The notes: generated by a model not told the origin, from the sequence alone. DNA of 64,000 nt from a virus (IMGVR_UViG_3300021964_000022:32001-96000), one strand, 5' to 3'. Shown: positions 12,855 to 44,004, numbered from the stretch's first letter. Program-made: numbers and translations.

Positions 12855-12859
12855 TGTGT

Positions 12860-15484: not shown

Positions 15485-15925
15485 ATGCCAGATATATCAT
15501 GTAGTGGATCGTTAATTTATTCTTTAGAAACTAAACGTTTCTTAATGCTTCATAGAACAAAAACAAAACAAAACAATGTTTGGGGCCTTGTAGGCGGAAA
15601 AGGCAAAACAGCCGAAACCCCTTGGAAGACACTTGAACGTGAGATCAATGAAGAACTAGGATTCAATCCAGAGATTATAAAATCTATACCTTTAGAAACT
15701 TTTGTATCAAATGATGAAAGGTTTAATTTTCATACATATTTGTGTGTTGTTAAAAAAGAATTTATACCAATACTCAACGACGAACATGATGGTTATGCAT
15801 GGGTAAGTTTTGGCAAGTGGCCAAAGCCGTTGCATCTAGGCTTACGCAATACTTTGCAAAGCAAACAAAACATTACAAAATTACAAACAGTATTTGAATT
15901 AATAACGATATTAGAAAATGAATAA
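15485..15925 (+). CDS. NUDIX hydrolase
   Basis: Nudix box WGLVGGK....ETPW..LEREINEELG and LNDEH.GYAW. Preceded by ATAAGTA-CTAGC-ATG. Confidence 0.9.
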   Translation: MPDISCSGSLIYSLETKRFLMLHRTKTKQNNVWGLVGGKGKTAETPWKTLEREINEELGFNPEIIKSIPLETFVSNDERFNFHTYLCVVKKEFIPILNDEHDGYAWVSFGKWPKPLHLGLRNTLQSKQNITKLQTVFELITILENE

Positions 15926-17081
15926 AGTATTAGTGATCGGCGATGTCATTATTGACAAATATATTTACGGTACGTCTACACGTATCAGCCCAGAAGCACC
16001 TGTACCTGTAATAACTTACATTGATGAAAAAGAAACAAGAGGCGGTGCAGGACTTGTATATGAAAATTTAAAAAGTTTAGGTGTTGATGTTGATATGTTT
16101 GAAACACCTGGAGACATTAGTGTTAAAACTAGAATAATCTGTGACGGACATTATATTACACGTATCGACGATGATGCATCGGCAAAAGGAATGGAAGTAC
16201 TAAAACAAGTACAAGAAACTGATTTTTCACAGTACGACTATGTTGTACTAAGTGACTACAACAAAGGTGTGTTAGATGAAGCAAAAGATATTATTGCACA
16301 CATTAACAAGTATAATTGTAAAGTAATTGTTGATCCAAAAGAAAATGCTTGGTTCTACGAAAATGCTTGGTTAGTAAAACCTAACTACAACGAATTCCAT
16401 GATTTAGGATTTAATGAATGGCAGGGTAATATTATTACAACTAATGCCGGTGAAGAAGTTATTGCACACATTGATGGTAAAAACTATGAGATCCCAGTTG
16501 ACAATTTAGAAGTAGCAGACGTAACAGGAGCCGGTGATTGTTTTCTAGCTGGGTTTGTTTATGCACTTACACAAGGATATGATTACGAAACTTGTTTAAA
16601 AATTGCTGTAAAAGGATCGTCTGAAAGTGTAAAACATAGTGGTACATATATCCTTACAAAACATGATGTCGAACATACAACAGTGTTTACAAATGGTTGT
16701 TTTGACATAATACACAAAGGACATATTGAATTATTGAAATACGCTTCAACACTAGGACATGAATTAATTGTAGGTTTAAACAGTGATGCAAGTGTTAAAA
16801 AATTAAAAGGTGCAACTAGACCTTACAATGATGAAAAAACAAGATACGAAACTCTTTTTTCTTTACCATTTGTTAAAAAAGTGGTTGTATTTGATGACGA
16901 AACACCGTATAATATAATAAAACAAATTAAGCCTAAGTACATTGTAAAAGGCGGAGATTATACTATAGAAGAAGTTGTAGGACACGATTTAGCAGAAGTT
17001 AGACTATTTCCTACAGTTGAAGGCTACAGTTCAAGTTATACAATAGAGAGAATGAATGAAAATATTAGTAACAGGACATAA
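15918..17081 (+). CDS. hldE: Bifunctional heptose-7-phosphate kinase / heptose-1-phosphate adenylyltransferase
   Basis: PfkB kinase motifs VIGD.I.DKY.YG...RISPEAPVPV, SDYNKG, VDPK, DVTGAGD; C-terminal FTNGCFDIIHKGH, VGLNSDASV..LKG..RP and KGGDY. Confidence 0.93.
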   Translation: MNKVLVIGDVIIDKYIYGTSTRISPEAPVPVITYIDEKETRGGAGLVYENLKSLGVDVDMFETPGDISVKTRIICDGHYITRIDDDASAKGMEVLKQVQETDFSQYDYVVLSDYNKGVLDEAKDIIAHINKYNCKVIVDPKENAWFYENAWLVKPNYNEFHDLGFNEWQGNIITTNAGEEVIAHIDGKNYEIPVDNLEVADVTGAGDCFLAGFVYALTQGYDYETCLKIAVKGSSESVKHSGTYILTKHDVEHTTVFTNGCFDIIHKGHIELLKYASTLGHELIVGLNSDASVKKLKGATRPYNDEKTRYETLFSLPFVKKVVVFDDETPYNIIKQIKPKYIVKGGDYTIEEVVGHDLAEVRLFPTVEGYSSSYTIERMNENISNRT

Positions 17082-17892
17082 AGGATTTATAGGCCAAAAC
17101 TTAGTCTATTATTTTTTAGGTAAAGGTCATAAGGTTGACGGATTTGATTGGGTACCAAACATTATACCCGATGTTACTCGCTATGATTGGATAATACATC
17201 TAGGTGCTATAAGTGATACTACTGAAAAAGATGTAGATAAAGTTTGGGAACAAAATTTTGAATTTACAAGTAGACTAATACAAGTATGTGACCAATTTGG
17301 AGTTAATCTACAACTAGCAAGTACTAATGCAGTATACGGTCCTGGATTTGACGGCTTTAGAGAAGATTCAAAATGTTTGCCGCAGACACCTTATGCATGG
17401 AGCAAATACTTAATTGACAAGAGTATAAAAGATGTCGGAGTAGAAAATTTTTCAAATTTAGTGCAATCATTTAGATATACAAATGTATACGGTCCTGGTG
17501 AAGGACACAAGAAAAACCAAATGAGCATGATTAGTAAATGGCAAGACCAAGCCGCTCGCAACGGTAGTATTGTTGTGTTCGAAGATAGTGATACCTTTCA
17601 TAGAGATTTAATTTGCGTATACGATGTTTGTAAAATACATGAAGCAATGATGGAAAAAGATGTAAGCGGTGTATTTAACTGTGGAACTGGAAAAGCAGTT
17701 AATCTAGAAGAAACTGCTCAAATGCTTGCAAAGAAAATGAATGCTACAGTAATACACGAACCTATGCCAGTAACATTACGTCCCCAGTATCAACCATATA
17801 CAGAAGCAGATATGACACTAATACAAGAACATATTAAACTACCTAAATTTTGGTCAGTAGAGGAGTACTTAAATGATACAGGTGTTCGATGA
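17056..17892 (+). CDS. hldD: ADP-L-glycero-D-manno-heptose 6-epimerase-like SDR
   Basis: VTG..GFIG, IHLGAIS.TTE.D, YAWSK (YxxxK), RY.NVYGPGE.HK..M.S, RD.I.V.DV, FN.GTG and YQ.YT.AD. Confidence 0.88.
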   Translation: MKILVTGHKGFIGQNLVYYFLGKGHKVDGFDWVPNIIPDVTRYDWIIHLGAISDTTEKDVDKVWEQNFEFTSRLIQVCDQFGVNLQLASTNAVYGPGFDGFREDSKCLPQTPYAWSKYLIDKSIKDVGVENFSNLVQSFRYTNVYGPGEGHKKNQMSMISKWQDQAARNGSIVVFEDSDTFHRDLICVYDVCKIHEAMMEKDVSGVFNCGTGKAVNLEETAQMLAKKMNATVIHEPMPVTLRPQYQPYTEADMTLIQEHIKLPKFWSVEEYLNDTGVR

Positions 17893-18379
17893 TGTATTAG
17901 ATTATAATAGCTTTGAACATGCACAAGTTGCTGTTATGGAACAAACTCCATTTAAGTTTGGTTGGCGTGATAGACGTACTACCGACGAAGTTTATCTGCA
18001 CAGTAGACTAGATTTAGAAGCACTAAACGAACTTAACATATTGCCACATTTAACACATGAAAGGTATAAAAATTTTATAAAGCCTACATTATTTGACTTT
18101 GCTATTGTAAATTGTGACAATATAGGCAGTGTACATTATAGTCATACACACAAAGATACTAATGTATTTTTATTATATCTTAACGAAACATGGAATCAAG
18201 AATGGGGCGGAGAAACTTTATTCTTTGATCAGGAATCAGGTAAAGAAATTGAATTTGCGTGTACTCCTAAACCAAATAGAGCTATTTGGTTCGACGGTGA
18301 AATACCACATAGTATTAGAGCGCCAATAATAAACAAATGGAGATTTAGTATCTCATTATTTTTTAGGAAAGAACAATGA
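17873..18379 (+). CDS. 2OG-Fe(II) oxygenase
   Basis: HTH, LLYLN..W...WGGET.F, PNRAIWFDG.IPH and R.SI. Confidence 0.85.
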   Translation: MIQVFDDVLDYNSFEHAQVAVMEQTPFKFGWRDRRTTDEVYLHSRLDLEALNELNILPHLTHERYKNFIKPTLFDFAIVNCDNIGSVHYSHTHKDTNVFLLYLNETWNQEWGGETLFFDQESGKEIEFACTPKPNRAIWFDGEIPHSIRAPIINKWRFSISLFFRKEQ

Positions 18380-18786
18380 CACAGTTGACAGGTAAAGTAG
18401 ATAAAGGTTGGGGCTTTGAATTAATTTGGGCGACCAATGACAAATATTGTGGAAAAATTATGGTATTTGAAAAAGTTGGCAGTAAGTTTAGTTTACATTT
18501 TCATAAAGAAAAAGACGAAACTTGGTTTGTAAATAATGGAAGATTTTTATTAAAATGGATTGATACATCTAATGCACAACTAAATGAACTAGAACTAAAA
18601 GAAGGCGATACATGGCACAATCCTCCATTACAACCGCATCAATTAATTGCACTAGAAGCCGGAAGTAGTGTTACAGAAGTTAGTACTGCGGACAGTGTTG
18701 AAGATAATTATAGAATTGTTAGAGGAGATTCACAGTCAGTTGAAAACACTCCTACTCCAGAAGAACCAAAAAGCGAAACAGAATAA
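18376..18786 (+). CDS. Cupin (sugar isomerase-like)
   Basis: KGWG.E, YCGK, SLHFHKEKDETW.V, PHQL and EVST.D..EDNYR...GD. Confidence 0.8.
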   Translation: MTQLTGKVDKGWGFELIWATNDKYCGKIMVFEKVGSKFSLHFHKEKDETWFVNNGRFLLKWIDTSNAQLNELELKEGDTWHNPPLQPHQLIALEAGSSVTEVSTADSVEDNYRIVRGDSQSVENTPTPEEPKSETE

Positions 18787-18801
18787 TTAAAATTTAGATA
18801 T

Positions 18802-18832
18802 AAAAAAAGGAGCAATAAATGCTCCTTTTTTT
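18802..18832. terminator. Bidirectional rho-independent terminator
   Basis: AAAAAAAGGAGCA-ATAAA-TGCTCCTTTTTTT between convergent genes. Confidence 0.92.
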
Positions 18833-18851
18833 GTGATTCTGTAAAGAAGTA

Positions 18852-21800
18852 TTAAGCCTGAGCTTCACCCCATTTAATAATAATATTAGCATTAACTGCC
18901 GCACCTGAAGTTTTATAAACATTCACTGCTAGTACATCTGGTCCATTCGGGAATGTACCTCTACCACCTAGTGTAGTGTTTGTTAATTCTTTTAACTGTC
19001 CTAGATCAAGATCTGATCTTTCACCTGGCGTAGCAATAAATGAAAATACTGTTTCACCTGGCTGTGCATACGGAGGTTGTCTAAACACAAAGTTAAATGC
19101 ATCACCTGGACTAACTGTACCTGTTGCGGCATTGTTAAACGATACTCTGTAGTAGTTAACAAATTCACCCGGTACATCCGGATCACCAAATAGTAACGGT
19201 CCTTCTACACCAGACACATATGTTGATGCTGGAAACGCAATATCACCTTGGTCAGTTGGTGGATCATTAAGTTCTGTACCAGATTTTGCGCCACTTGCTG
19301 TCCATGATGCTTCAGTAAACAACGCAAAGTTTCTGTTATCAGAATCTCCGCCAAAAGCAAATGTAATGTTTTGGTTATCTACTAGGTTACTTGTTGAAGT
19401 TGTACTAAATCTTACAAATACATATGATCCTTGGTTTGTTATCTGAGTAATTGTTGTACCGTTTGCAAATTTTGAATCGTCAACTTCACTACCTACTACT
19501 AAGTTTTTGTCTAAGAAACTTGGGTAGAAGTAAGCATAGTTTCTACGTCTATTAGACTGGAATGTATTCATCTGTGCGTTGACTTGTGTTCTTGGAATGA
19601 TTGTTGCTGTTGCAGTAGTTGATGTATCTCCTGAACTCCATACAACCGAACCACCTGATGCAACTTGTGCGAAACTTGGCTGTCCACCTTGTGCTAGTCC
19701 TGACAGTCCCTGCCAACCAACATCTGCTGGATTCAATGGATAGTTTTGTGGATTAAGAATACCTTCAACAACAATACCGCCTAAGATACTATTTCCACTA
19801 CCGTCTTCACCATCTGATGTAATCTCCATAGACTGCATAAGCAACTGAGCTCTGTTTAGTAGTTCTCTGTCACCTAAGTCGCCAACAATAGCGTTTGAAA
19901 CACTAGGTGCTAGTCGTAATAAGAATGCTGTTTGTCTTGTAGTACTAATAGCCAATCCTGTTTCTGTATATGAGAAGATATATCCTCTATCATCATCAAA
20001 ATTACCATCTGTAATAAACGCTGAACCCCAGTGTGATATAAGTGGTGTAATAGTATTACTTACAAGTACAACACCTGTTTTCTTATCGTGTGTTGTTGCT
20101 GGACCTGCTGTGTACTGTCTTTGGGCACCAGCTTGGAAGTTAAACATACTTACTGCTCTAGTCAATCCTGTTAATCTATTTTGTGCATAATCTACACTAC
20201 TAAATGCAATTAGTTCGTTATCAATATAAACTGTTCCACTAGTTGGGAAGAAACGTGCATCATCTAACGGAACATATGCAGTATTGTCTGACATATTTTC
20301 TGATAGTTTTCCTGGAGGTCCTTCGTTAGTAACTTCATAACGTACAGGTAAGTTACCTGAACGCATAAATGCTTCTGTGTTTACGTTTGAGTTACGCATT
20401 CTGTGTGCAAACACAAAGTTACCATCTGCACCACGTAGCATCCAATCAATAAAACCAGCACCATACCAACTGTACTGAATTCCAATCATCTGCATGTATG
20501 CAATGTCAATTTTATATCCGCTTGGTCCTGTACCATCTAATCTATCTAAGTTGAATTCATCTTGTTTAACTTTTTTATCAGTTACCAAACATACCTTTGC
20601 CGCTAATACAGCATTTACACCTCTGTAATCTGGTGTAACTGTACATTGAGTTTGACTGTTAACATGACTTACAACGTGTGTCATTCCTCTGATAACAATT
20701 CTATCACCTGCTTTTAGCTGATCTCTAAACTTAGTACCAGTTCCTGTAATAAGGTTTGCATCAGGAGCAATAGCAATAGTTCCTGCAATTTGTTTTGTAC
20801 TTGTACGCTGTGCTACTGTAATATTAGAACCATCGTATTCCCAATAAATTCCGTTTTGATCATCAAAGATACCTGAACGCACAGTTGCACCGTGCCAACC
20901 TGTTACAGCAACCTGAGCCGCAAATCCTAGTGTAGCTTCTATACTTCCTAAACGTCTTACACCTAGAACTTTAAATGTTCTTTCGTTTACAACTTGCGTA
21001 ACTGTGTAATTACCATTATAACCTTCTGTCTCTACACCTATAAGTCTAACTTTACCGCCAACCTGCATTCCGTGATCGTTATCATCACATGTTACAGTGA
21101 TTGTTGATCCAACTTCTGTTCCGTTTGAAGTAACACTTGCAATGTCATAACTTGGAGCAAATAGTGCACCAGTTGTGTACATAATACCTTTACCTGATTG
21201 GTATCTAATATATTTCTTACTTTGACGTATTGCTTGTGCGCCGTGTTGTGGTCCGCCTGTTCCTAACTGAACACCACCATCATATGGTCTGTGAATAAAG
21301 AAACTGTCTGGACGTAAGTAGATGTTAGCTAGAATACTATCGTTACCTGTAGTTGTTATAGCACCAGGTGCTCTTGCTGGGTATCTAATAGTATTAACTG
21401 TTGGAACTTGTGTTGCAATAAATGCGCCACTTGCTAATGAGTGATTGTTAGTTCCACCACCTTCTCCATCATCGGAGCTCACTGTTACAATAAATGTCGC
21501 GCCTGGAACAACTCCGTGTGCGTTAGTAAATGTTGCTTCTAATGTTGCTAATGCTTCGAATGGAATCTCTTCAGCCGCTGTAATTGGAGCAGTTGTAAAT
21601 TCTGACATTGTAACTGAGTTAACTAATGATAAACTATCACCTGCAATACTTGTACCTGTTACTGATCCAGTTGAAATTGCACCAGTTGACACACCGGTTA
21701 CAGTTACTACGGCATCATTTGCTGGACTTGCGCCACCTAAATCAGTACCTAAAATAGTAATAGTATTACCCACTCTATAGTTTGTACCGCCAGTTACATT

Positions 21801-25619: not shown

Positions 25620-25625
25620 TCTTTT

Positions 25626-26186: not shown

Positions 26187-26195
26187 TATCTATCC

Positions 26196-27692: not shown

Positions 27693-27695
27693 TTC

Positions 27696-28205: not shown

Positions 28206-28224
28206 ATGGAGCTCCTTACTGTAT

Positions 28225-28797
28225 TTATCCAGTAAGCGCCGTTAAGCTCTCTGCGAATTCATAAAGGTTTTCGTACACTTCAGTTTGTTTTTTAAGATCT
28301 TTGTTTGCAAAAGTGTTAAGTTTCTCTAGGGTTTCAAGGCCGTAACCTGTTTTAACAAGTACTGGCTTTGCTTTCGCCTTTACAGCCGCCTTTAAGTCCG
28401 ATATTTTATCTCCTACGTATAATCCGTTCTTCCAATTTACACCAATCTGTGTTTCAGCACGACGAAACATTCCTATATTAGGTTTAGCATATATGTCATC
28501 TTTTAAATTAGTTGTACTATAATACAATCCGTTAATACTGCTACAACCTACTTGTCCAAATAATCTTAGCATGTGTTCGTGAACTATATCAACATCCTCT
28601 GCCGTCATGTTTCCCTTAGTGATACCTGCTTGATTAGTCAATATTACTACATCGTAACCCTTATCCCTAATCATTTTAACTGCTTCTAAGCTACCTGGAA
28701 TAGGTTCAAATTGTTCTGGTTTTGTTACATACGTTCCGATATCTTTATTAATTGTTCCGTCTCTATCTAATCCAATTACTGGTGGTGTTTTAGTCAT
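28225..28797 (-). CDS. gmhB: D-glycero-D-manno-heptose 1,7-bisphosphate phosphatase (HAD IIIA)
   Basis: LDRDGTIN, ILTNQAG, KPNIGM, YVGD..SD..AA and LVKTGYG. Confidence 0.88.
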   Translation of the reverse strand: MTKTPPVIGLDRDGTINKDIGTYVTKPEQFEPIPGSLEAVKMIRDKGYDVVILTNQAGITKGNMTAEDVDIVHEHMLRLFGQVGCSSINGLYYSTTNLKDDIYAKPNIGMFRRAETQIGVNWKNGLYVGDKISDLKAAVKAKAKPVLVKTGYGLETLEKLNTFANKDLKKQTEVYENLYEFAESLTALTG

Positions 28798-29665
28798 CTG
28801 ACCATCCTATCTTATCTGTGTTTAATTCTATCCATCCAAGTTTACTTAAAACTGGTAGGTAGTTCTCTGTTATTTTAGTTTGATAATGTTCTGCTAATTC
28901 TATTGCCTTTTCATTTAATTCAGTTTCACCTAGCAGAGGTAAAATATATTCTTCTAAGTATTTTAAATACTCAAACGGTAAAGGATGCATCTCGGCTCGA
29001 GCTTCTTCTAAAGTATCTCCCATATTTGCTAACGTCATTGGGCGACTGTCAACATATTTTTCCGGATCTTTAGGATTATATCCGTTCCAATCCATAATTG
29101 CAGGAGCATCAGAAGTTAAATAATTTTTATATTGATTAAGAACTCCGTTTACACTGCTCGGAGTAAGTGGCTCAGTGTAGTCGAGTTTACTATTTTTATC
29201 AGTTAAATTATTATAATGATCTGCATAAGCAAATTTTATATATTTACAACCTTTTTGTTTTAAAAATATTTCTATACTTGCAATCATAGCACAGTCTCTC
29301 ATTACACAATGTACTTGATCTGCCCATTGGTACTGATCTCTATAATCAAAATTATTTAATGTCATTGGTTCGTGTTTTAATTGGCCGTGATATAAATTTC
29401 CTGCATTATGCCAGCCCGTTCCTTCGATCCACCTATCATCTCGTAGCATACTTGTCCATTGTACTATAATGATATCGTCTTTTGTAAAATTATAAATCGA
29501 ATCTGCTTCAAATATTCTAGTAAAAATATATTGATTACCGGCACCTGACTTCCCCCAGTTCTCTGATTTTTCAAGTTTATCTCCAAAATGCCAAATTAAT
29601 AAGTCGGCCCATGTAGGATAAAAAAATTGTGTTAAACTACACCCGAAGGTAAAAAGTCTAGCCAT
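28790..29665 (-). CDS. Hypothetical protein, SGNH-like
   Basis: LFTFGCS.T...W.D, N.G.SGAGN, IIVQWT...R.D and a C-terminal HP. Confidence 0.5.
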   Translation of the reverse strand: MARLFTFGCSLTQFFYPTWADLLIWHFGDKLEKSENWGKSGAGNQYIFTRIFEADSIYNFTKDDIIIVQWTSMLRDDRWIEGTGWHNAGNLYHGQLKHEPMTLNNFDYRDQYQWADQVHCVMRDCAMIASIEIFLKQKGCKYIKFAYADHYNNLTDKNSKLDYTEPLTPSSVNGVLNQYKNYLTSDAPAIMDWNGYNPKDPEKYVDSRPMTLANMGDTLEEARAEMHPLPFEYLKYLEEYILPLLGETELNEKAIELAEHYQTKITENYLPVLSKLGWIELNTDKIGWSDD

Positions 29666-31130
29666 TTAAAAGCCTTACTAAACGTATAATTTCTTTGTGA
29701 GGTATTGTTCTATAGTTGCTTCGACTGTATTCTGAATCATTTACTACCCGTTGTGCAAGTTCTTTTTGGCTTTGTGGTAACATTTCATATTGTTCTTTAA
29801 TTTTTTCAATATTAAATAGTCCTAACCCGTGCATTACTAAAATATAATGCATCTTATCAAACAATTTGTAGTCACTTGTACTATCAAAGTCTCCGGTAGT
29901 TGGTAATCTATTTTTCCATTGCGTTAAATTTTCTTCTAGGTTAGGAGGAAGAGGAACATTTTTTTGGTCTTTCCAAAAATCACTGTCGTCTCTATCTGTA
30001 ATATAATGTAAAGCAATAAAATCTCTAATGTCATTGAGTATGCTTGTAACTTCTTTATTGTACTTGTTAACAGTAACTTCGTTATAGTTTAAAATTCTGT
30101 CAGTAAGTAAAAAACTTTGTTGAATGCTTGTTCCGATACTAGTTGCCTCGAGAGGTTCTACAAAACTTGCACTTAATCCAATGGCAACACAATTTTTAAT
30201 CCAAGGATTTTTAACTGCACCAGGATCAAAACTAATTTCTTTGCGGACATCAATACCTTCCCCAAGCATTTGCTCAACTTCACGTTGTGCTTCATCGGCA
30301 TTTATATAGTTACTGTCAAAAATATAACCGTTGCCTTTCCTTCCCCAGACAGGTATCCTAAACATCCAACCATATTTCATTGCTTGTGCCAATGTCCACA
30401 TAGGGTAAGTGTCTTCGTCTGGTGTTTGGAATACTATAGCCCGGTTCATTTTTAAATACTTGCTATAACTTTCCCACTCTGCACCTAACGTGTTTAATAA
30501 CATACGTTTGAACCCAGTACAGTCAATAAAAAAGTCTGCTTCGTATGTATTTTCTTTACTGCTTATACTTTTTATACCATTTTCATCAGTAACTACATCT
30601 TCTATTATATCATCTACAATCTTTATACCTATACTCTGTGCTTTTTCATGTAGGTATTCATTTAGCTTTGCGGTATTAAAATGGAATTGAGCAACAGGAA
30701 ACTCTGCAAGTATTTCTTCAACGTCATTTGTCCAAAAAATATTACCAGTCCAACTTTCATCTTCAACTAGATCCTTAGGAGCTCGACCATCGCCGATTAA
30801 TTTACCATAAAGTACAGGGTAATCATGTGCTAGTATATTATAGGCTCCTTCAACTGTTTGTAAATAGTCGTTCTTTGACCAGTCCTTAAACATTATGCCT
30901 GCTTTGAATGTTGCATCACTCTTTGTAAGCATCTCTGCTTTATTGAATCCCATATACTCCATAAATTCTTTCCAATGTTCAGTAGATCCTTCACCTACAC
31001 CTATTGTTCCTATTTTACTAGATTCAACAATTTGGATTGATATACTCGGATAGGCCTTTTTTAAAATAAGTGCGGCAACAAATCCAGCTGTCCCGCCTCC
31101 TACTACACATATATTTTTTGGTAATTTCAA
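29658..31130 (-). CDS. Flavin-dependent tryptophan halogenase-like protein
   Basis: VVGGGTAG, IGVGEGS, ATFKAGI (catalytic-Lys region), FIDCTGF, GWMFRIP and GLS..FVEPLEATSI. The likely start is TTG at 31130, with a GGAG RBS and ATAAATA at 31150-31156. Confidence 0.88.
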   Translation of the reverse strand: MKLPKNICVVGGGTAGFVAALILKKAYPSISIQIVESSKIGTIGVGEGSTEHWKEFMEYMGFNKAEMLTKSDATFKAGIMFKDWSKNDYLQTVEGAYNILAHDYPVLYGKLIGDGRAPKDLVEDESWTGNIFWTNDVEEILAEFPVAQFHFNTAKLNEYLHEKAQSIGIKIVDDIIEDVVTDENGIKSISSKENTYEADFFIDCTGFKRMLLNTLGAEWESYSKYLKMNRAIVFQTPDEDTYPMWTLAQAMKYGWMFRIPVWGRKGNGYIFDSNYINADEAQREVEQMLGEGIDVRKEISFDPGAVKNPWIKNCVAIGLSASFVEPLEATSIGTSIQQSFLLTDRILNYNEVTVNKYNKEVTSILNDIRDFIALHYITDRDDSDFWKDQKNVPLPPNLEENLTQWKNRLPTTGDFDSTSDYKLFDKMHYILVMHGLGLFNIEKIKEQYEMLPQSQKELAQRVVNDSEYSRSNYRTIPHKEIIRLVRLLNG

Positions 31131-31203
31131 GTTATTCTCCGTTGTGTAATATTTATTGGCCTCAGACCTAATAATTGTAGAGTCTGAATCTCGTAAATAC
31201 ATT

Positions 31204-36269: not shown

Positions 36270-36823
36270 TTGTTCTCCTTTGTCTTCATTGTTATGTTTA
36301 TTACTATTCTTCTATAATTATTGAATGGGTTAGTGCTACTATGTAATTTATTACTTGGAAAAAATACTGCATTACCTTGTTCAAAAATACTTTGATCTAT
36401 TTGGTTTAATTTATTATCAAACATTACAGTTGGACCATCGCTTTTGTTTACATAATAAACTAAACTTGTCCATTCATCATCATGTACGTCAATATGTGGT
36501 GTATTGTAACTGTTTGATGTTGTTGTATCTTGAAATAACATATTTGCTTTTATTCTGCCAAGTTCGCACACTTGAAGTTTTTTATGATATTCAAAAAAAT
36601 GTATTAATGGTCTTACTCCTTCCCATAAATGACTTACAGGCTGTCCTTGATCGTAAAGTAAATGTACAAACTGATGACTGTCTTCAATACCATCTACTTT
36701 GTTTACTTCTTGATAATTTACAGTACTAGGTGTATATATCCATGATACTTTGTCGCCTGTAAATATGTTGTCTAGTTCGTTTACTAATGTTACAGGTAGC
36801 CAGTTTTGTAATTTGTTAAACAT
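36266..36823 (-). CDS. 2OG-Fe(II) oxygenase
   Basis: RIKAN, TPHID, YYVN.SDG.T, F.....HSSTNP and R.VININ. Confidence 0.8.
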   Translation of the reverse strand: MFNKLQNWLPVTLVNELDNIFTGDKVSWIYTPSTVNYQEVNKVDGIEDSHQFVHLLYDQGQPVSHLWEGVRPLIHFFEYHKKLQVCELGRIKANMLFQDTTTSNSYNTPHIDVHDDEWTSLVYYVNKSDGPTVMFDNKLNQIDQSIFEQGNAVFFPSNKLHSSTNPFNNYRRIVINITMKTKENK

Positions 36824-37679
36824 TTATTTTTTGTCCTATAAGGTCTGAAACAGTTACCCTATTGTACTTTCCGCCTCTATTGTTTTCTGCATATTCTTCG
36901 CCGCCTTGTCCAAACATAATACAATCTGTTTCTTCTAAATTGTTTTCTGCACAAACTTGCATATATACATTGCCGTAAGTATTCCAATTATGGTCTATAC
37001 TAAAGTTTTGTACTAGATTGTTAGCAATACTTAACGGTATTCTATTAATCATTTCAACAGAATTGAATACGTCAATACCGTCGTCTTCATCTTTACGCTG
37101 TAAACGCATACCTACACGCAAAAATTCACAACCGTAAAATGCCTTTGAAATTGAAAATGTAATCGTCTCTACTGCACTAAATTTTTTTAAGTTTAAGTTA
37201 ATATTTTTTGTACACGGAAAGTATGCAAAATCTAATAGTACAGGTATATCCATTCCAGCACAATTATATAAAATGTTCTCCATTGGTAGTTGTATACCTG
37301 CATCGCTAAACGGAACACTAATAATAACAGCATCGTTATTATCTAGTTTACTATCTTCTATGTAAGCCCAATCAAAACCATGCTTTAAACAAGCACTGTG
37401 GTACATAAATTCGCCCTTATAAAATCTAAAGCGTTTGGCCTTGTGTTTTAGATAAAAATGGTCAAATGCTTGTGCTGTGCCGCATACAAGACGTTTACTA
37501 GGAAATAGATCTAATCCTTGTAAGTTGTTTAACTTACTACTGTTAATCCAATTATAAAAGTTTTCAGTAAACTCTTGTGGTAAACTGTCATTGTATAGCT
37601 CTGAGCTACAATCTAAATTGCTAATATAATGTTTAAAGTAGTAGTCTACTACAGGTTTAGCGCCTCGTAAATTCATCAT
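36816..37679 (-). CDS. PLP-dependent aminotransferase-fold protein
   Basis: G..QAFD, GEF.YH, IS.PFS..G, LLDFAY and FSISKAFY...LRVG (Schiff-base Lys). Confidence 0.65.
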   Translation of the reverse strand: MMNLRGAKPVVDYYFKHYISNLDCSSELYNDSLPQEFTENFYNWINSSKLNNLQGLDLFPSKRLVCGTAQAFDHFYLKHKAKRFRFYKGEFMYHSACLKHGFDWAYIEDSKLDNNDAVIISVPFSDAGIQLPMENILYNCAGMDIPVLLDFAYFPCTKNINLNLKKFSAVETITFSISKAFYGCEFLRVGMRLQRKDEDDGIDVFNSVEMINRIPLSIANNLVQNFSIDHNWNTYGNVYMQVCAENNLEETDCIMFGQGGEEYAENNRGGKYNRVTVSDLIGQKINV

Positions 37680-38175
37680 AAACTCCAGTTACTTGCATAG
37701 TATACTTTGTGGTCATACCCATATTTCCACTCAAATGCAGTTGATTTCTTCTTATTATTATAGCATCACCACGCTTCCAATGCAAGAAACTTTTTTCATT
37801 TATTTCAAAATAATGTCCACTTTTCCAATCTTCTAAAAAAATATTAACCCTACAACACTTGTACGGGTCGATATTATTTTTATTTGCAAATTGAAAATAA
37901 GTATCTTCGTGATTTGGTAATGTTTGACCTGGAGGTTGTTTCATTATTCCTACGCTATATCTAGGAAATAATGTTTTGCAGAAATTATGTATTTCTTCAG
38001 TAACTTCAAATGCACGATAGTACATACTATTGTCAGTATGATATCCTGCATCAATGTATTTTAAATTTTGTTGTTCAAACTCGTCTGTACGATCTGATAT
38101 AGTTACATTATCTTCATGCACCCATTTAAGATTCTTATAATCAAAGTCTGGTAATTGTAAGTTTATTTTTCCCAT
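37657..38175 (-). CDS. Cupin/2OG-Fe(II) oxygenase-like protein
   Basis: PGQTLPNHED, R..IFLEDWKSGHY, W..GD and HLSGN.G...KYTMQVTG. Confidence 0.65.
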   Translation of the reverse strand: MGKINLQLPDFDYKNLKWVHEDNVTISDRTDEFEQQNLKYIDAGYHTDNSMYYRAFEVTEEIHNFCKTLFPRYSVGIMKQPPGQTLPNHEDTYFQFANKNNIDPYKCCRVNIFLEDWKSGHYFEINEKSFLHWKRGDAIIIRRNQLHLSGNMGMTTKYTMQVTGVYDEFTRR

Positions 38176-38915
38176 GGCTTATCGTATGGAACCTTTTCTT
38201 TATCGTCAAACCAGTATAAACTTCTATGTGGTGGAAATTTATCATCATGTTTAGCGTTACTAACATAGTAAAATAGACGAAGATTTTTTCTACTATGATT
38301 TTGTGGTAACTTCATTGGTTCGGGGTATCCATGATATGCTAAATTATTATAACTCCATACTACTAAGTTACCTGCGTCTGGTACAACTCGACTTACAACT
38401 GTTTTTCTATCAGTGTCATAAAAGTCTAAATTGCCTCCCCAACTTTCTTGCCATTTAGGATTTAAGTAAATTATAACACTTAAACGTCTATGCAATCTAA
38501 GTTGCTCATTCCAATTAAAATCTGTGTGTACTTTTAAACTATCACCTGTAAATGCTTTGCAATATCCTGCTCCTACTAAATGGGGATCGGGTATTAAATC
38601 AACAGTGTCGGTTATTTCTTGTAACCATTTTAAAAATGTTGCTCCGTGTAATGCACTTACAACAGCATCTTGAATAGGCGTATTATCAACATTATTATAT
38701 TCATACATACGACTACCTTTACGTGTAAATTTTTTACAATCCTCTAAAGGAATTTCGTCTAGTTCTTTAGCCATATTTTGTACAAGATCTATAGGTAAAA
38801 AGTTTTTTATTTCTAGTTTACTATATCCTGGATGACTTCTATATTCTTGTTGTAAAGAAAACGTGTCGGAGAAGTTATCTTGGATATGATCCAATATCTG
38901 CTTCTTAATGGTCAT
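38163..38915 (-). CDS. 2OG-Fe(II) oxygenase (prolyl hydroxylase-like)
   Basis: L.PDPHL.GAG, L.VHTDFN, IYLN..W...WGG.L, YHG.P and RK....FYY. Confidence 0.88.
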   Translation of the reverse strand: MTIKKQILDHIQDNFSDTFSLQQEYRSHPGYSKLEIKNFLPIDLVQNMAKELDEIPLEDCKKFTRKGSRMYEYNNVDNTPIQDAVVSALHGATFLKWLQEITDTVDLIPDPHLVGAGYCKAFTGDSLKVHTDFNWNEQLRLHRRLSVIIYLNPKWQESWGGNLDFYDTDRKTVVSRVVPDAGNLVVWSYNNLAYHGYPEPMKLPQNHSRKNLRLFYYVSNAKHDDKFPPHRSLYWFDDKEKVPYDKPWEK

Positions 38916-40715
38916 TTAATTTCTCACACTAATTAATTTTTTATACTCAGGTAAGTATAGGTACTCTATATCACTATCATATAATGTTCTTATCGCATCG
39001 TCAAGTGTTTCTACTAATGGTTCGCCGCCTAAGTTAAAACTTGTATTAAACAAAATAGGTAATCCTGTTTCATTATAAAAATCTTTTATTAAATTATAAT
39101 AATTTTTATTTTGTTCTTCTTTTACTGTTTGTATACGACATGTACCGTCAACGTGTATGATACTAGGAATCTTTTCAGCAATACCAGGTTGACAATTCAT
39201 TGCATACATCATGTGCGGTGTTTCTTCTAATCCACGCATATCAAACCATTCGTGTGCATGTTCGTGTAGTATACTACCAGCAAACGGACGGAAATATTCT
39301 CTACGCTTAACTTTGTTAACATGATCTTTACCATCTTCGTATGATGGGTCAAACAATAAACTACGATTACCTAATGCTCTCGGTCCTGATTCCGAACGTC
39401 CTTGGAACATTGCTACAATATTTTTATTTGTTAATAATTCTATAACATCTTTATTTTCTGCGTCTTTTATTTCTGCATCATATTTTTCTACTACTGATGT
39501 TATTTCCTTATCAGTATAAGAGTACGCAGGGCCTAAATATAAACTATCTGCATATGTACGCTGTTTATCATCTTGCATCATATGATGATAATGTAACATT
39601 GCCGCACCAATACATGTTCCAGCATCGCTTGAAATTGGTTCAACATACAATTTAATACCATGTTCGTTAAGTGTTTCTAAGAAGAAATAGTTTGCTACAC
39701 AGTTTAGTCCATAGCCGCCGCTGAGTACAACGTTTTTATTCCCGGTCATTTCAACTGCATTTAATATAAGTTCTAGTACACGCTGTTGTGATTCTGTTTG
39801 TACTGCATACGCCATATCTCTACGACTTTGTAATGTTGTTAAATCTTCACCATTTTCATAAACTGATTGTTCAGTTTTTAAGGCTTCATATCTGTTTTCA
39901 TTTACAACAGCACCGTTTGGATAAGTTGGAATAATTAAATTTCTATTTGCAGACACCCATTCATTACCGCCATCATCTGTATATACTGGAGGTATACCAT
40001 CGTTTGGTTTGCCGTATGGTGATAGACCCATAGTTTTACCTGCTTCAATTGGTTGCCAGCCGCAGTATTGTGTTACTGCTTCATATGCTTTTACAATTCC
40101 TGCTGTATCGTCAAGTACTAATTCGTGTGTTCCACTTTCGCCTTCACGCTCACTAGGTATATTCATCTTAGCACCCATATAAGGTCCACGACCGCCTTGG
40201 TGCTTCCATATTGTTTTAATATTTGCAGGGTATTCACAATTAAATATTGTTTCTAACTCCCATGTCATTTCAGAGGTATTACCAAAATTCATAGGAATGT
40301 ATGTGCCTGCTCCGTCTACAATAACTGCTGTTGCACTTTTAAATCCTGAGCGATAAAATGCACACGCCGCATGTAGTTTATGGTGTACAAATGCATAATC
40401 TAATACTTGAGGGTGTTCAGTACCTTCGTACTTCCTATCAATTAATCCTAATTTACGAGCAAGTCCAGTGTATATATCGTCACCGCTAAAATCAATTTTA
40501 CCTGCTGTCTCACCTAATGGTTGTGTATGTGCAATTATTAAGTAATCAATTTTATCTGTATAGTCGAGTATTTTAACCATACCTGCTAAAGGTCCGCCAT
40601 CATACTTTTGTCTACTTAATCGTTCTTCTTCTAAACTAAAAATAACTTCACCGTCTTTTAATAGACAAACTGCTCCGTTATGACCTCGTGTTATACCTGC
40701 TATCCATTGTGCCAT
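38916..40715 (-). CDS. Carbamoyltransferase (NodU/CmcH/TobZ family)
   Basis: EEERLSRQK, HH..HA, VDG.G, GKTMGL.PYG, GG..LNCVAN, GRSESGPRALGNRS, RE.FRPFA, HVDGT.R.QTV and NTSFN..GEP. Confidence 0.95.
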   Translation of the reverse strand: MAQWIAGITRGHNGAVCLLKDGEVIFSLEEERLSRQKYDGGPLAGMVKILDYTDKIDYLIIAHTQPLGETAGKIDFSGDDIYTGLARKLGLIDRKYEGTEHPQVLDYAFVHHKLHAACAFYRSGFKSATAVIVDGAGTYIPMNFGNTSEMTWELETIFNCEYPANIKTIWKHQGGRGPYMGAKMNIPSEREGESGTHELVLDDTAGIVKAYEAVTQYCGWQPIEAGKTMGLSPYGKPNDGIPPVYTDDGGNEWVSANRNLIIPTYPNGAVVNENRYEALKTEQSVYENGEDLTTLQSRRDMAYAVQTESQQRVLELILNAVEMTGNKNVVLSGGYGLNCVANYFFLETLNEHGIKLYVEPISSDAGTCIGAAMLHYHHMMQDDKQRTYADSLYLGPAYSYTDKEITSVVEKYDAEIKDAENKDVIELLTNKNIVAMFQGRSESGPRALGNRSLLFDPSYEDGKDHVNKVKRREYFRPFAGSILHEHAHEWFDMRGLEETPHMMYAMNCQPGIAEKIPSIIHVDGTCRIQTVKEEQNKNYYNLIKDFYNETGLPILFNTSFNLGGEPLVETLDDAIRTLYDSDIEYLYLPEYKKLISVRN

Positions 40716-40716
40716 C

Positions 40717-41256
40717 TTAAAACTCTCCTACGTCAAATGTAAAGTCACTTACAAAGACTTTTCGTTGTTGTTGTGTAGGATATGTGCCATGCCATACTCT
40801 ACCATCTAGTATTATTAACTTACCTGCTTCAGGCTTCCATTCTTCATAACTCATTCTATTATCATTATTCAATGTAGCATACAAATATCCTGCATGTGGG
40901 TATTTTTCTTCTTCTATGTAATCATTTAAAAATAACACACAAGTAAATTGCCTACCCGGTGTATGTGAATGCATACCAGCATAACTATGTTTTGGATAAT
41001 CTATCCACCAACTTTTACTATGCTGTATATTTTTATATGGTAAATTTTTAACATGTTTTTTTATATGTTCTTGATAATCATTACTAATTATAGCAGGAAA
41101 TTCCCAATTATGCAAGTGAAAAATTGTACTATCACCACTATCTCTATGACTTTCTGCTTCTATATCAAATAGTTGCATAAAGTCGTTATAATTGTCGTAC
41201 TTACTTTCTATGTAATACGTAGGCAACAAACTATGAGCGTAAGTATCAAAGTCCAT
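40717..41256 (-). CDS. 2OG-Fe(II) oxygenase-like protein
   Basis: W...YP..SYAGMHSH, VLFL, G.LII.DG...HG.YP and R.VFV. Confidence 0.7.
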   Translation of the reverse strand: MDFDTYAHSLLPTYYIESKYDNYNDFMQLFDIEAESHRDSGDSTIFHLHNWEFPAIISNDYQEHIKKHVKNLPYKNIQHSKSWWIDYPKHSYAGMHSHTPGRQFTCVLFLNDYIEEEKYPHAGYLYATLNNDNRMSYEEWKPEAGKLIILDGRVWHGTYPTQQQRKVFVSDFTFDVGEF

Positions 41257-42314
41257 TAACTTCCTGTTCTATTTAAAATTTGTGCTGGTTGTTGTTGTTG
41301 ACTGTGGTCATGATTAGGATTGTCACAACTTTGTGATTGAGGTGCCATCGGAATAAATGTTCCGGTAAATTTTTCACTTTTTCCTAATGCTTTTTTACAA
41401 CTATTAACTACCTTAGAAATATTATCTTTTCCTAATTCCATTACTTCGTCATTTACACGATCTTGCCAATCTTCCATTGTTGTTCTAATGGGACTATATG
41501 TTCTTTTACCTTCGCCAACATCAATAATATCAAATGTATTATCATTAGGATAAGATATGTTGATTGGAAAAGTACTTCCAGTAACAATAGTTGCTGATTT
41601 ACCTAGTGCCTTTGCTAGGTGTTGTCCTAAACTATCACAACCTAAAAAGTGATCTGCAATTTCAATTATACTTGCCCAAGTTCTTGTATCTGGAATCTGT
41701 GGCATAGCTACTGGAGTTTTATTACTGTCATTATCATCTAATGCTACAGGAAATTCACTCATTAATATAACAGCATATTCTTTTTTAAGTTGATTAATTA
41801 TTTCAATAACGTCATTTAGATGAAAGCTTCTACTAGTTGGATCAATTATAAAATCGCCCATGTTTTGTGTACTTCTTCCAAAAGGTTGAAATACCAATAC
41901 TTTATCTAATTTAGTTTTGGCTTTAATTTCTTGTACAATGTTAAATCCATTGACTATTTCTTGTTTATTAAGAATTACTTTAGGATCGCCCATATCTCTT
42001 AAACCTTTGTTATTAATAATAATATCAAATGCTTGTGCAATACTTGCTTGTTGGTTGTAATACTCCCAAACCCTATACGGTTCTGGACTTACACAATCTC
42101 TATGTTTAATATAATCTTCGAATAGATTCTTATGCCAAACGTCATATGCACGTTTATGTAATGTAGGATGTCCTTTATAAAAGTCCATACCACCTTCGCA
42201 TACAATGATAAAATCGTTATCTGGGTTTTCTTCTTCGAATTTTTCAAACGCAGGTATTGATGTGATTACCCGGCCTGCGCCACCATTGATAAAAAATGCT
42301 GTTGATCTAGACAA
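41256..42314 (-). CDS. GT-B glycosyltransferase, GT9 (ADP-heptose heptosyltransferase)-like
   Basis: N-terminal GGAGRVI..IPA (compare GT9 xIGD), R.WASII..ADHFLGCDS..QHLA.ALG....IV.GST (GT9 DSG..HLA.A motif). TTG start with AGGAGG RBS. Confidence 0.65.
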   Translation of the reverse strand: MSRSTAFFINGGAGRVITSIPAFEKFEEENPDNDFIIVCEGGMDFYKGHPTLHKRAYDVWHKNLFEDYIKHRDCVSPEPYRVWEYYNQQASIAQAFDIIINNKGLRDMGDPKVILNKQEIVNGFNIVQEIKAKTKLDKVLVFQPFGRSTQNMGDFIIDPTSRSFHLNDVIEIINQLKKEYAVILMSEFPVALDDNDSNKTPVAMPQIPDTRTWASIIEIADHFLGCDSLGQHLAKALGKSATIVTGSTFPINISYPNDNTFDIIDVGEGKRTYSPIRTTMEDWQDRVNDEVMELGKDNISKVVNSCKKALGKSEKFTGTFIPMAPQSQSCDNPNHDHSQQQQPAQILNRTGS

Positions 42315-42317
42315 AAA

Positions 42318-42360
42318 ACGTCCTCCTATAATATTGTTAAAATATTTATAGTGAGGACGT
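42318..42360 (-). promoter_or_regulatory. RBS-sequestering hairpin containing a TATAAATA late promoter
   Basis: ACGTCCTC (42318-42325) pairs with GAGGACGT (42353-42360), extended inward by CTATA/TATAG and ATATT/AATAT. The AGGAGG RBS is in the 3' arm and TATAAATA (42343-42350) is in the 5' arm. Confidence 0.75.
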
Positions 42361-43989: not shown

Positions 43990-44004
43990 AATATTTCCTC
44001 TTTC

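Follow-up and report, generated by a model that had tools for sequence, protein, structure and literature searches.

Why would a marine phage carry a heptose pathway among the genes that build its tail? The window analyzed here, a stretch of 64,000 nucleotides, belongs to a 110-kb contig of a marine T4-like phage, representing about 30% of a genome. The original prediction placed hldE, hldD, gmhB and a GT9-like glycosyltransferase gene in this window, and profile searches and fold comparison located all four at the same positions. Baseplate and fibre genes in the contig annotation are indeed interleaved with the sugar genes. The best explanation is a conserved, late-transcribed module for glycan tailoring in marine T4-like phages of the cyanomyovirus type, and the gene set suggests that the phage may sugar-coat its own particle.

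The sugar genes start directly 3' of a late structural gene encoding a gp15-like tail sheath stabiliser (14023..15471, plus strand; PF16724, E 1.9e-25), and from this gene through to 18786 neighbouring genes adjoin or overlap one another. A NUDIX hydrolase, possibly a nucleotide-sugar pyrophosphatase (15485..15925, plus; PF00293, E 4.4e-16), accompanies gp15 and HldE in related loci. The HldE-like protein (15918..17081, plus) joins a PfkB heptose-7-phosphate kinase domain to a cytidylyltransferase-like heptose-1-phosphate adenylyltransferase domain and retains intact TGAGD and HKGH motifs (NF008454, E 4.5e-77, 260 bits against a 521-bit cut-off; TIGR02198, 1.2e-50; TIGR02199, 5.5e-44). The HldD-like SDR (17056..17892, plus; TIGR02197, E 9.5e-60), which resembles ADP-glycero-manno-heptose 6-epimerase, keeps its GxxGxxG and YxxxK motifs. 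The GmhB-like HAD-IIIA protein (28225..28797, minus; NF006506, E 2e-39), which resembles heptose 1,7-bisphosphate 7-phosphatase, has the DxDGT, TNQ and GDxxxD motifs; as for HldE and HldD, its matches all score under the NCBIfam equivalog cut-offs. The plus-strand run continues with a prolyl-hydroxylase-like or FlmC-like 2OG-Fe(II) oxygenase (17873..18379; PF13640, E 6e-9; NF052475, 2.9e-14; weak PDB match to prolyl 4-hydroxylases, E 0.0076) and ends with a small metal-binding cupin (18376..18786) whose motifs contain His41, His43, Glu48 and His88. The order gp15-NUDIX-HldE-HldD-cupin-GmhB recurs in related loci (L048-L053, L067-L069 and L071).

In support of the proposal that the phage makes its own heptose donor, enzymes for three of the four steps to ADP-heptose are encoded here. 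The gmhA step is missing, as had been noted for the window, and profile searches (TIGR00441, SIS_2) extended this absence to the whole 110-kb contig, about 30% of the genome. Because of this gap, the identity of the sugar is not secured. The cupin may stand in for the missing sedoheptulose-7-phosphate isomerase. It is present in 28 of 28 loci with HldE and HldD, and its homologues, 73–99% identical, carry the JGI name 'mannose-6-phosphate isomerase-like'; the fold search did not tell cupin functions apart.

Late transcription of the sugar module is proposed from the placement of promoter motifs and the shared operon with gp15; contigs from RNA libraries, which may include DNA, carry no information on timing. 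The motif ATAAATA occurs at 25 sites in the contig, and 15 of them lie 5–40 nt upstream of a same-strand start, where 0.41 would be expected by position alone. Ahead of the GT9-like gene, the T4-type late promoter motif TATAAATA (42343..42350, minus) is followed by 15 nt, AGGAGG, 8 nt and a TTG start. The gmhB unit is headed by a flavin-dependent tryptophan-halogenase-like gene (29658..31130, minus; PF04820, E 1.5e-93), whose refined start, a TTG at 31130 followed by GGGTAG, lies 19 nt downstream of the late-type motif AATAAATA (31150..31157, minus). Between the halogenase and GmhB lies a conserved ORF (orf291; 28790..29665, minus) with no Pfam, PHROG or PDB match, in which an SGNH-like FGCS...GKSGAGN motif can be seen by eye. 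About 20 loci preserve the order halogenase-orf291-GmhB-orf169. The original prediction that late promoters head all of these units stands for the GT9-like gene and the gmhB unit but only partly for hldE and hldD, which have no late motif of their own and lie downstream of gp15 in the overlapping or abutting run. The motif heading that run, at 12848-12854, is atypically spaced, 0–5 nt from the first ATGs.

The presumed heptosyltransferase (41256..42314, minus) belongs to phrog_8954 (2e-146), T4-GC 302 of cyanophages, and has no Pfam or NCBIfam match, including PF01075, by sequence. Its AF2 model (pLDDT 92.7) clearly predicts a GT9-like fold, in agreement with the original prediction. Foldseek matched GT9-like structures at E 3e-10 to 2e-8, and VIA gave Z scores of 23.5 for the uncharacterised Veillonella protein 3tov, 21.0 for WaaF, 19.9 for TibC and 18.9 for WaaC, with the next GT-B at 11.3. 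The same two-Rossmann GT-B fold is thus found, with the best scores, in 3tov and in WaaC and WaaF (CAZy GT9; PDB 2h1f, 1psw). The phage enzyme shares with WaaC and WaaF the D(S/T)G..H motif of the C-terminal donor site (D227/H232, corresponding to D261/H266 of WaaC), has a basic residue, R162, in the position of K192, and is encoded in linkage with genes for ADP-heptose synthesis. Unlike them, it lacks PF01075, has Arg15 in the column of the catalytic Asp13, is acidic rather than basic (pI 5.4, family median 5.9, versus 9.0 for WaaC) and is a virus-only protein encoded among tail-fibre genes, and its likely hosts lack a Kdo/heptose LPS core as substrate.

A closer kinship with TibC and Aah was not supported. 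Structural comparison does not single out TibC over WaaF or WaaC. TibC (BAHT family; PMC4358343) has the GT9-related core in common with it (rmsd 3.2 over 265 residues), but the phage model aligns only from TibC residue 92 and lacks the N-terminal beta-barrel. The phage enzyme also has no four-Cys iron finger, only five scattered Cys with no CxxC pair, and no counterpart of catalytic Asp110, which is replaced by Arg. It is not a BAHT family member, and since barrel and iron finger are absent, a TibC/Aah-type protein heptosyltransferase is ruled out. Both TibC and Aah O-heptosylate a protein encoded next door, from ADP-heptose in the cytoplasm (PMC4358343), and modification of a neighbouring protein in this way serves as our working model for the phage enzyme.

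Apart from scattered MAG contigs that were probably mis-binned, homologues of the transferase turned up on viral contigs alone. In the ESM Atlas, every one of the nearest clusters is viral and carries the automatic name heptosyltransferase, with PF01075 in 22% of the members of one of them. Distant but true family members (hhalign 99.7%) lie between giant structural/tail genes in Vibrio and Aeromonas phages of about 78 kb, and these phages lack heptose genes, HldE included. Vibrio and Aeromonas hosts make ADP-heptose.

The constant partner of the transferase is an O-carbamoyltransferase, a link that the original prediction had not drawn. This NolO/TobZ/GdmN-type enzyme (38916..40715, minus; PF16861, 5e-59; PF02543, 2.2e-24; PDB matches 7xb6, 1.3e-59, GdmN, 1e-45, and TobZ, 7e-43) lies within 3 kb downstream of the transferase in 70 of 70 related loci. 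A small 2OG-Fe(II) oxygenase (40717..41256, minus; phrog_81, 6e-8; PF13640, 1.2e-4, under cut-off) separates the two genes here and occupies this junction in 23 of 80 loci. Directly 3' of the carbamoyltransferase is a prolyl-hydroxylase-like 2OG-Fe(II) oxygenase (38163..38915, minus; PF13640, E 1.1e-15). Upstream, a tail-fibre assembly chaperone-like gene (42392..43117, minus; PF16778, 9e-6; phrog_9740, 8.6e-24; phrog_4912, 1.2e-4) with its own late motif at 43141-43147 is found within 2.5 kb of the transferase in 70 of 73 loci. It is preceded by three tandem Cys/Gly-rich, fibre-tip-like paralogues of about 280 aa (43153..45703, minus; phrog_4205, E 1e-30 to 1e-34), which 58 of 63 loci have upstream of the transferase; P-SSM2 and S-SSM7 carry them too, with the same gene order in the region.

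Co-occurrence of transferase and heptose genes across related phages was confirmed. A heptose gene lies within 10 kb of the transferase in 48 of 52 loci, and all seven cultured cyanophages with the transferase also carry HldE; most loci of conserved order belong to a single phage lineage (at least 56% identity), and the synteny may therefore be inherited rather than a sign of functional coupling. Nor is the heptose pathway tied to virion genes everywhere, because S-T4 and P-TIM68 carry the cassette without the GT9-like gene, in GT-A-rich clusters beside hli genes. These clusters look like polysaccharide synthesis.

From the genes, their linkage and the promoter motifs, we infer a donor, an order of steps and an acceptor. 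The phage HldE-like kinase/adenylyltransferase, GmhB-like phosphatase and HldD-like epimerase would produce ADP-activated glycero-manno-heptose, with the isomerase activity supplied by the always-linked metal cupin or by the host. The virus-only GT9-like enzyme would then transfer the heptose, and the adjacent TobZ/NolO-type enzyme would O-carbamoylate it. The acceptor would most likely be a phage-made structural component, with the upstream Cys/Gly-rich fibre-like proteins as first candidates, and the product would be a heptose-based virion decoration rather than a change to host LPS. That a heptose pathway supplies the GT9-like enzyme and the carbamoyltransferase is quite probable in itself; the full model, virion acceptor included, is the leading reading, at a tentative probability of roughly 40%. 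Heptose and Kdo are both absent from the LPS of marine Synechococcus (PMC4515613). In marine Synechococcus, therefore, the LPS core offers no acceptor of the WaaC type, and any phage in need of heptose has to bring its own pathway.

Relatives of this module are known from cyanomyoviruses, where the heptose genes are already annotated as "LPS genes". The same kinase/nucleotidyltransferase/cupin/epimerase cassette is present in P-SSM2, S-SSM7 and S-SM2 (T4-GCs 304, 305, 307 and 308; PMC3037559), and P-SSM2 and S-SSM7 share the transferase and the carbamoyltransferase (T4-GC 303) in the same order. In contrast to those clusters, the kinase and nucleotidyltransferase are fused here in the order of HldE, the cassette occupies two late units separated by 20 kb, and a GmhB-type phosphatase replaces a small protein annotated 'phosphoheptose isomerase'. 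The function of the cyanophage clusters was left open ('stuffer DNA?') and the T4-GC 302 transferase left hypothetical (PMC3037559). In mycobacteriophages (Che8 and its relatives), capsids are reportedly glycosylated by transferases that the phages themselves encode (Freeman et al. 2023, as cited in PMC11256854). There and in chloroviruses, virus-encoded cytoplasmic enzymes of GT-A/GT2 type decorate the virus's own capsid and tail-tube proteins using host hexose donors. Unlike in those systems, the donor pathway here would be phage-encoded and the sugar a heptose, probably carbamoylated.

A serious rival to virion decoration, though a less probable one, is remodelling of the host envelope, in which heptose, phage Kdo and the contig's glycosyltransferases would build a lipid-linked LPS- or capsule-like glycan on the infected cell. 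Such a glycan could mask receptors, sparing progeny loss on debris, or block superinfection. Heptose genes have traditionally been read as LPS genes (PMC3037559; PMC7029224; PMC7378029), and GT9 enzymes of known function act mostly on LPS cores. Upstream on the same contig are kdsA, kdsB, a GT8 and an NT-PMI fusion, and a pyruvyltransferase-like gene is also present; kdsA, kdsB and the further glycosyltransferases would suit a lipid-linked Kdo/heptose glycan no less than one attached to protein. The S-T4 and P-TIM68 cassettes, which lie away from tail genes, point the same way. Late motifs and co-transcription with gp15, as read from motifs and gene order, would however leave little time for envelope rebuilding, and marine Synechococcus LPS lacks the Kdo/heptose acceptor of WaaC and WaaF. 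The acidic transferase, unlike WaaC, is a poor match for an anionic lipid or DNA acceptor, and it always adjoins fibre and chaperone genes, even in Vibrio phages without sugar genes. No flippase or ligase gene was found among the scanned ORFs, which cover part of the contig.

Less probable again is that the transferase is not a heptosyltransferase, but uses another donor or acceptor chemistry (e.g. a phosphate or carboxylate acceptor) or serves in structure or assembly as a protein that binds sugar nucleotides. Almost every family member has Arg in place of the catalytic Asp of GT9 and TibC, and chemistry or acceptor may therefore differ from those of known heptosyltransferases. The missing PF01075 match, heptose cassettes without the transferase and a GT9-like fold in a non-enzymatic NDH-complex subunit (7wff_a, Z 19.7) are consistent with this. 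Conservation nevertheless argues for catalysis, with 29 invariant or nearly invariant positions that include the donor-site D/H motif; E78, E119 and D158 could serve as alternative bases, and transferase and heptose genes occur together almost everywhere in cyanophage-type loci.

Very unlikely is DNA hypermodification, with heptose placed on a hydroxylated base of phage DNA. Phage clusters for attaching heptose or Kdo to 5hmC also combine a sugar-activation module with a GT-B enzyme, sometimes near structural genes, but they are defined by a C5-methyltransferase with a TET-like oxygenase, or a ThyA-like enzyme, and their glycosyltransferases resemble T4 beta-GT, BshA or MshA, not GT9 (bioRxiv 10.1101/2023.12.21.572611). 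No C5-methyltransferase, TET/JBP or ThyA-like hydroxymethylase, nor a beta-GT-like enzyme, was found in the 110-kb contig, weak evidence because the contig is only a fragment. One distant family member adjoins a dCMP deaminase and helicases, and 2OG-Fe(II) oxygenases flank the transferase here, but they match prolyl-hydroxylase-like families, not TET/JBP, and the transferase is acidic.

The halogenase, radical SAM enzymes, oxygenases, carbamoyltransferase, transferase and heptose genes resemble a biosynthetic cluster, the closest carbamoyltransferases of solved structure (TobZ, GdmN, NovN) modify antibiotics and septacidin is a heptose-containing antibiotic, yet a glycosylated secondary metabolite or modified peptide has only a slim chance, as the genes are spread over structural operons that each carry late motifs, the scanned ORFs yielded neither a scaffold-forming enzyme (NRPS, PKS) nor a precursor peptide, and loci without the radical SAM block still keep the transferase-carbamoyltransferase pair.

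The heptose donor genes were identified by profile matches and catalytic motifs. On the plus strand, a PfkB kinase is fused to a cytidylyltransferase-type nucleotidyltransferase in an HldE-like protein (15918-17081; NF008454, E 4.5e-77, with TIGR02198 and TIGR02199 matching its halves), and both the kinase GAGD motif (VTGAGD) and the adenylyltransferase HxGH motif (HKGH) are intact. NF008454 was its best match, at 260 bits against an equivalog cut-off of 521 bits. The HldD-like SDR epimerase (17056-17892, plus strand; TIGR02197, E 9.5e-60, 202 bits versus a 275-bit cut-off) has the Rossmann motif TGHKGFIG and the YxxxK motif YAWSK. On the minus strand, a GmhB-like HAD-IIIA phosphatase (28225-28797; NF006506, E 2e-39, 135 bits versus a 178-bit cut-off) retains DRDGT (DxDGT), TNQ and GDKISD (GDxxxD). 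Judged from sequence, all three are clear relatives of the named enzymes; their scores below the NCBIfam equivalog cut-offs leave the exact substrate uncertified. The original prediction had placed hldE, hldD, gmhB and a glycosyltransferase gene here, and coordinates, profile matches, motifs and the glycosyltransferase fold agree with it. It had also noted the absence of gmhA from the window, which was confirmed and extended: SIS-type GmhA (TIGR00441, PF13580) had no match in the 110-kb linear IMG/VR contig, about 30% complete by CheckV.

The glycosyltransferase (41256-42314, minus strand) belongs to PHROG 8954, of unknown function, and to cyanophage cluster T4-GC 302, annotated "hypothetical protein". 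No Pfam or NCBIfam profile matched it at E ≤ 0.01. An AlphaFold2 model built from a 75-sequence alignment (pLDDT 92.7, pTM 0.89) was compared with all PDB structures by VIA. The top hits were 3tov (Z 23.5), WaaF (1psw, 21.0), TibC (4rap, 19.9), 7wff_a (19.7) and WaaC (2h1f, 18.9). These five top chains are GT9 or GT9-like (7wff_a being an NDH subunit), and the best other GT-B structure reached Z 11.3. Foldseek concurred (E 3e-10 to 2e-8, probability 1.00). The modelled GT-B fold thus lies nearest to solved structures of CAZy GT9/PF01075, as had been predicted. At the profile level, PDB sequences of WaaF and WaaC were found at E 0.077-0.3, and the hhalign probability against WaaC/WaaF was 35-65%, short of placing the family in GT9/PF01075; in one related viral ESM Atlas cluster, PF01075 was present in 22% of members. 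In the profile comparison, an invariant GCDSxGQH block aligned with the D(S/T)G..H donor-site motif of WaaC/WaaF. Invariant D227 and H232 correspond to WaaC D261 and H266, and near-invariant R162 to the phosphate-binding K192. When the protein is aligned by MAFFT to WaaC, WaaF and WaaU of E. coli, the column of the WaaC catalytic D13 (G-D-V) holds Arg15 (G-R-V). This arginine is nearly invariant in 75 family members and is kept in a Vibrio phage member of 26% identity. The protein is acidic, with a pI of 5.4 (family median 5.9) compared with 9.0 for WaaC.

The predicted kinship with the protein heptosyltransferases TibC and Aah did not extend to membership. That family has an N-terminal beta-barrel (TibC residues 1-97), a catalytic Asp110 and a four-Cys iron finger needed for the dodecamer (PMC4358343). 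The phage protein lacks the barrel: its model residues 1-314 align to TibC 92-391, so that it starts at the GT core. It also lacks the iron finger, with cysteines at 39, 74, 226, 306 and 330 only and no CxxC pair, and the column equivalent to Asp110 is occupied by Arg. Without barrel and iron finger, the transferase is not a TibC-type enzyme. The structural ranking of TibC against WaaC/WaaF was considered as a clue to acceptor type and dropped because the scores are effectively tied; the fold therefore indicates neither a protein nor a glycan acceptor.

The family appears to be confined to viruses. The closest ESM Atlas clusters were viral without exception, and among 185,579 prokaryote genomes scanned, the family turned up only on 14 short MAG contigs. 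Assigned to unrelated phyla, they are probably mis-binned phage DNA and provided neither a cellular homologue nor a host clue. These contigs (L089-L102 among our fetched loci) were assigned to Flavobacteriales, Actinomycetota, Marinimicrobia, "Methanobacteriota", Woesearchaeota and others. By its modelled fold and its distribution, the transferase is a GT9-like, virus-restricted offshoot.

The phage itself resembles cyanomyoviruses. The window spans bases 32001-96000 of the contig and has a GC content of 29-43%. T4-type genes for morphogenesis are present: a sheath stabiliser resembling gp15, a baseplate connector resembling gp9/10 and denV, together with several fibre or baseplate proteins of 1,100-2,250 aa. 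Compared as proteins, the closest cultured relatives are S-SSM7, S-CAM1/3 and P-SSM2, with transferase identities of 44-59%. No psbA match was found within the contig fragment, so the cyanophage assignment comes from these relatives alone. When 15400-19000 was compared with the phage collection as nucleotide sequence, nothing matched, relatives being detectable only by protein comparison. The segment 38900-43200 was found nearly whole (85-100% of sampled words) in estuary, seawater and sediment metagenomes from more than 10 studies (2018-2025), indicating a widespread phage.

Gene linkage was examined by fetching 80 related viral loci and mapping them with the window proteins, counting only loci with enough flank. 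A carbamoyltransferase follows the transferase in all 70 loci, and a chaperone-like gene (PF16778-like, phrog_9740; 42392-43117, minus strand, in the window) precedes it in 70 of 73. Cys/Gly-rich phrog_4205 genes also precede it (58/63), and 48 of 52 loci have at least one heptose gene no farther than 10 kb downstream. This order is shared by P-SSM2 and S-SSM7, whose heptose cassettes are uninterrupted and lie between fibres and the neck genes gp13-15. The two halves, 20 kb apart in the window, face each other in ten of the fetched loci (L048, L049, L051-L053, L067-L069, L071 and, loosely, L038) in the order gp15-NUDIX-HldE-HldD-cupin-GmhB, then carbamoyltransferase-GT. HldE is present in each of the seven cultured cyanophages that carry the transferase. 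Co-occurrence runs from transferase to cassette; the converse fails, as S-T4 and P-TIM68 have the cassette without the transferase, in GT-A-rich clusters beside hli genes. From this linkage, the donor of the transferase is presumed to be ADP-L-glycero-beta-D-manno-heptose. True family members also occur in Vibrio/Aeromonas phages of about 78 kb, which have no HldE; there they are flanked by a structural ORF of 1,952 aa on one side and a tail protein of 1,643 aa on the other. Related-loci searches with the distant family members P0267 and P0184 returned none and one locus, respectively.

The adjoining gene encodes a full-length O-carbamoyltransferase (38916-40715, minus strand; PF02543, PF16861), nearest in the PDB to 7xb6 (1.3e-59), GdmN, NovN and TobZ. 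These four carbamoylate hydroxyls of sugars or aglycones. Its invariable position next to the transferase suggests that the transferred sugar is O-carbamoylated.

The step normally performed by GmhA may be filled in another way. P-SSM2 (PSSM2_311, L001:17312-17656 in our fetched loci) and S-SSM7 (SSSM7_130, L087:22708-23043) encode a "phosphoheptose isomerase" of about 112 aa, which showed no SIS match and only a weak HAD-type LNS2 match. Among 28 loci with HldE and HldD, GmhB was present in 13, this small protein in 13, both in none and neither in 2. Such mutual exclusion suggests that the small protein is probably an alternative phosphatase rather than an isomerase and that its annotation looks wrong. 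The single additional gene found in all 28 of these cassettes encodes a small cupin (18376-18786) with a complete His-His-Glu-His metal site, whose homologues are named "mannose-6-phosphate isomerase-like" by the JGI pipeline. We hypothesize that the cupin would act as an aldose-ketose isomerase on sedoheptulose-7-phosphate, completing the pathway in place of SIS-type GmhA; alternatively, the host may supply GmhA. The fold search does not separate cupin functions: the AF2 model is mediocre (pLDDT 69), small cupins bunched at Z about 10-12 in two PDB searches, and the matches were mixed, including sugar isomerases, KdgF, the CapF cupin, oxalate decarboxylase and CENP-C. Conservation of the cupin is unusually high, its homologues being 73-99% identical among the best 120 database matches, and HldE is merely 33-38% identical to its cyanophage homologues.

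Late promoter motifs were then located across the contig as motif evidence, distinct from expression data. ATAAATA occurs at 25 sites; at 15 of these a start on the same strand follows after 5-40 nt, against 0.41 expected by position, and most of the sites near starts stand in front of baseplate and fibre genes. The transferase has a full T4 late box, TATAAATA, followed by 15 nt, AGGAGG, 8 nt and TTG, and the chaperone-like gene upstream of it has a separate late box. gmhB is the third gene of a unit that opens with the halogenase gene, whose refined start, TTG 31130 (GGGTAG after), lies 19 nt past AATAAATA. hldE and hldD have no late box of their own and continue from gp15 through overlapping or abutting junctions, a pattern simply explained if they are transcribed together with this late structural gene. 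The predicted arrangement in units headed by late-type promoters therefore stood for the transferase and the gmhB unit; for hldE and hldD it stood only by way of the box heading the gp15-hldE-hldD run, which is unusually near the first ATGs. The region is matched nearly base for base by RNA-library contigs from three studies. Because these contigs could contain DNA and are silent on strand, start and timing, they do not count as evidence of late expression. A limited literature search found no time-course transcriptome of a transferase-carrying phage. A scan of 31-47 kb for sigma-70 promoters and terminators found fewer sites than in shuffles and was thus not informative. In the short divergent gap at 12834-12854, two ATAAATA motifs lie 7 nt apart on opposite strands, and the minus-strand gene there probably starts at ATG 12812, not at the listed TTG 12897.

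Herein, our findings give good support to a module in which a phage heptose pathway feeds a GT9-like transferase and then a carbamoyltransferase, all of late type, to which we assign a probability of roughly 0.75. The destination of the sugar is far less secure. The original prediction favored heptosylation of the virion over remodelling of host LPS alone, and a virion component is still the best single reading of the acceptor, although the evidence is circumstantial and we hold it at somewhat less than even odds. This reading draws on the late motif, co-transcription with gp15, the constant place behind fibre- and chaperone-like genes, the acidic transferase, and the family members located between structural and tail genes in Vibrio/Aeromonas phages without HldE. 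Phage glycosyltransferases glycosylate mycobacteriophage capsids, according to Freeman et al. 2023 as cited in PMC11256854. For marine Synechococcus, the one host group whose LPS sugar data were checked, a review statement citing Snyder et al. 2009 describes LPS without heptose and Kdo (PMC4515613). This would remove the classical GT9 acceptor and explain why cyanophages need a pathway of their own.

A host cell-envelope glycan is the strongest competing target. The literature reads cyanophage heptose genes as LPS genes (PMC3037559, PMC7029224, PMC7378029), and S-T4 and P-TIM68 keep the cassette among GT-A genes, without the GT9-like transferase. Upstream of the window, contig 10487-23547 (fetched as L083:10487-11906 and L084:1287-3547) encodes KdsB-like, KdsA-like, GT8, cytidylyltransferase-like/PMI-cupin fusion and pyruvyltransferase-like proteins, which gives the phage a Kdo supply as well; this block has a single ATAAATA motif. 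If the envelope is the target, this would be a lytic phage that adds foreign core sugars to its host at a late stage of infection. Glycosylation of DNA with heptose is an improbable reading: heptose on DNA is now known in other phages (bioRxiv 10.1101/2023.12.21.572611) and, in one distant locus, a dCMP deaminase and helicases adjoin the transferase, though so does a tail tube gene, but C5-methyltransferase (PF00145), TET/JBP (PF12851) and ThyA-like (PF00303) profiles were unmatched in the contig fragment, and the four 2OG-Fe(II) oxygenases of the window (17873-18379, 31156-31818, 38163-38915 and 40717-41256) match prolyl-hydroxylase-like families. A PDB sequence search with the small oxygenase at 40717-41256 gave nothing useful.

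Within the virion reading, a more specific and rather unlikely version is that marine T4-like phages O-glycosylate their receptor-binding fibre proteins with carbamoylated heptose. It would combine a complete phage-borne donor pathway, a virus-only GT9 offshoot with a catalytic Asp-to-Arg change, a metal cupin in place of GmhA and heptose-less picocyanobacterial hosts; the phage would carry the pathway because these hosts make no heptose. If true, it would set two precedents: a virion glycosylation based on heptose, and a virion glycan made from a host-foreign sugar. Virion heptosylation would bear on host range, particle stability, grazing and decay in the sea, and the diversification of receptor-binding proteins, and GT9 would gain a protein-acting or otherwise non-LPS branch with altered catalytic chemistry. 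The heptose genes themselves are long known, having been listed since 2005 as cyanomyovirus "LPS genes" whose use was unknown, with even stuffer DNA proposed (PMC3037559). What is new here is the fold assignment of T4-GC 302/phrog_8954 with its altered catalytic residue and obligatory partners, and the re-reading of the "phosphoheptose isomerase" annotation. An old annotation puzzle is thereby open to direct experiment on cultured phages.

Interspersed with the tail genes at 29658-38915 is a dense set of tailoring enzymes: a tryptophan-halogenase-like gene, two of the four 2OG-Fe(II) oxygenases (31156-31818 and 38163-38915) and a pair of radical SAM proteins, of which the one at 32233-33174 has an N-terminal SPASM domain, are among them. 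Between the halogenase gene and gmhB lies a conserved 291-aa ORF (28790-29665, minus strand) that had no match in Pfam, PHROGs or PDB sequences; its FGCSLT start and GKSGAGN resemble blocks I and II of SGNH hydrolases. Across the three Cys/Gly-rich paralogues (43153-45703, minus strand), joints in metatranscriptome contigs skip 852-876 bases, equal to one unit, which suggests population copy-number variants or assembly collapse of repeats.
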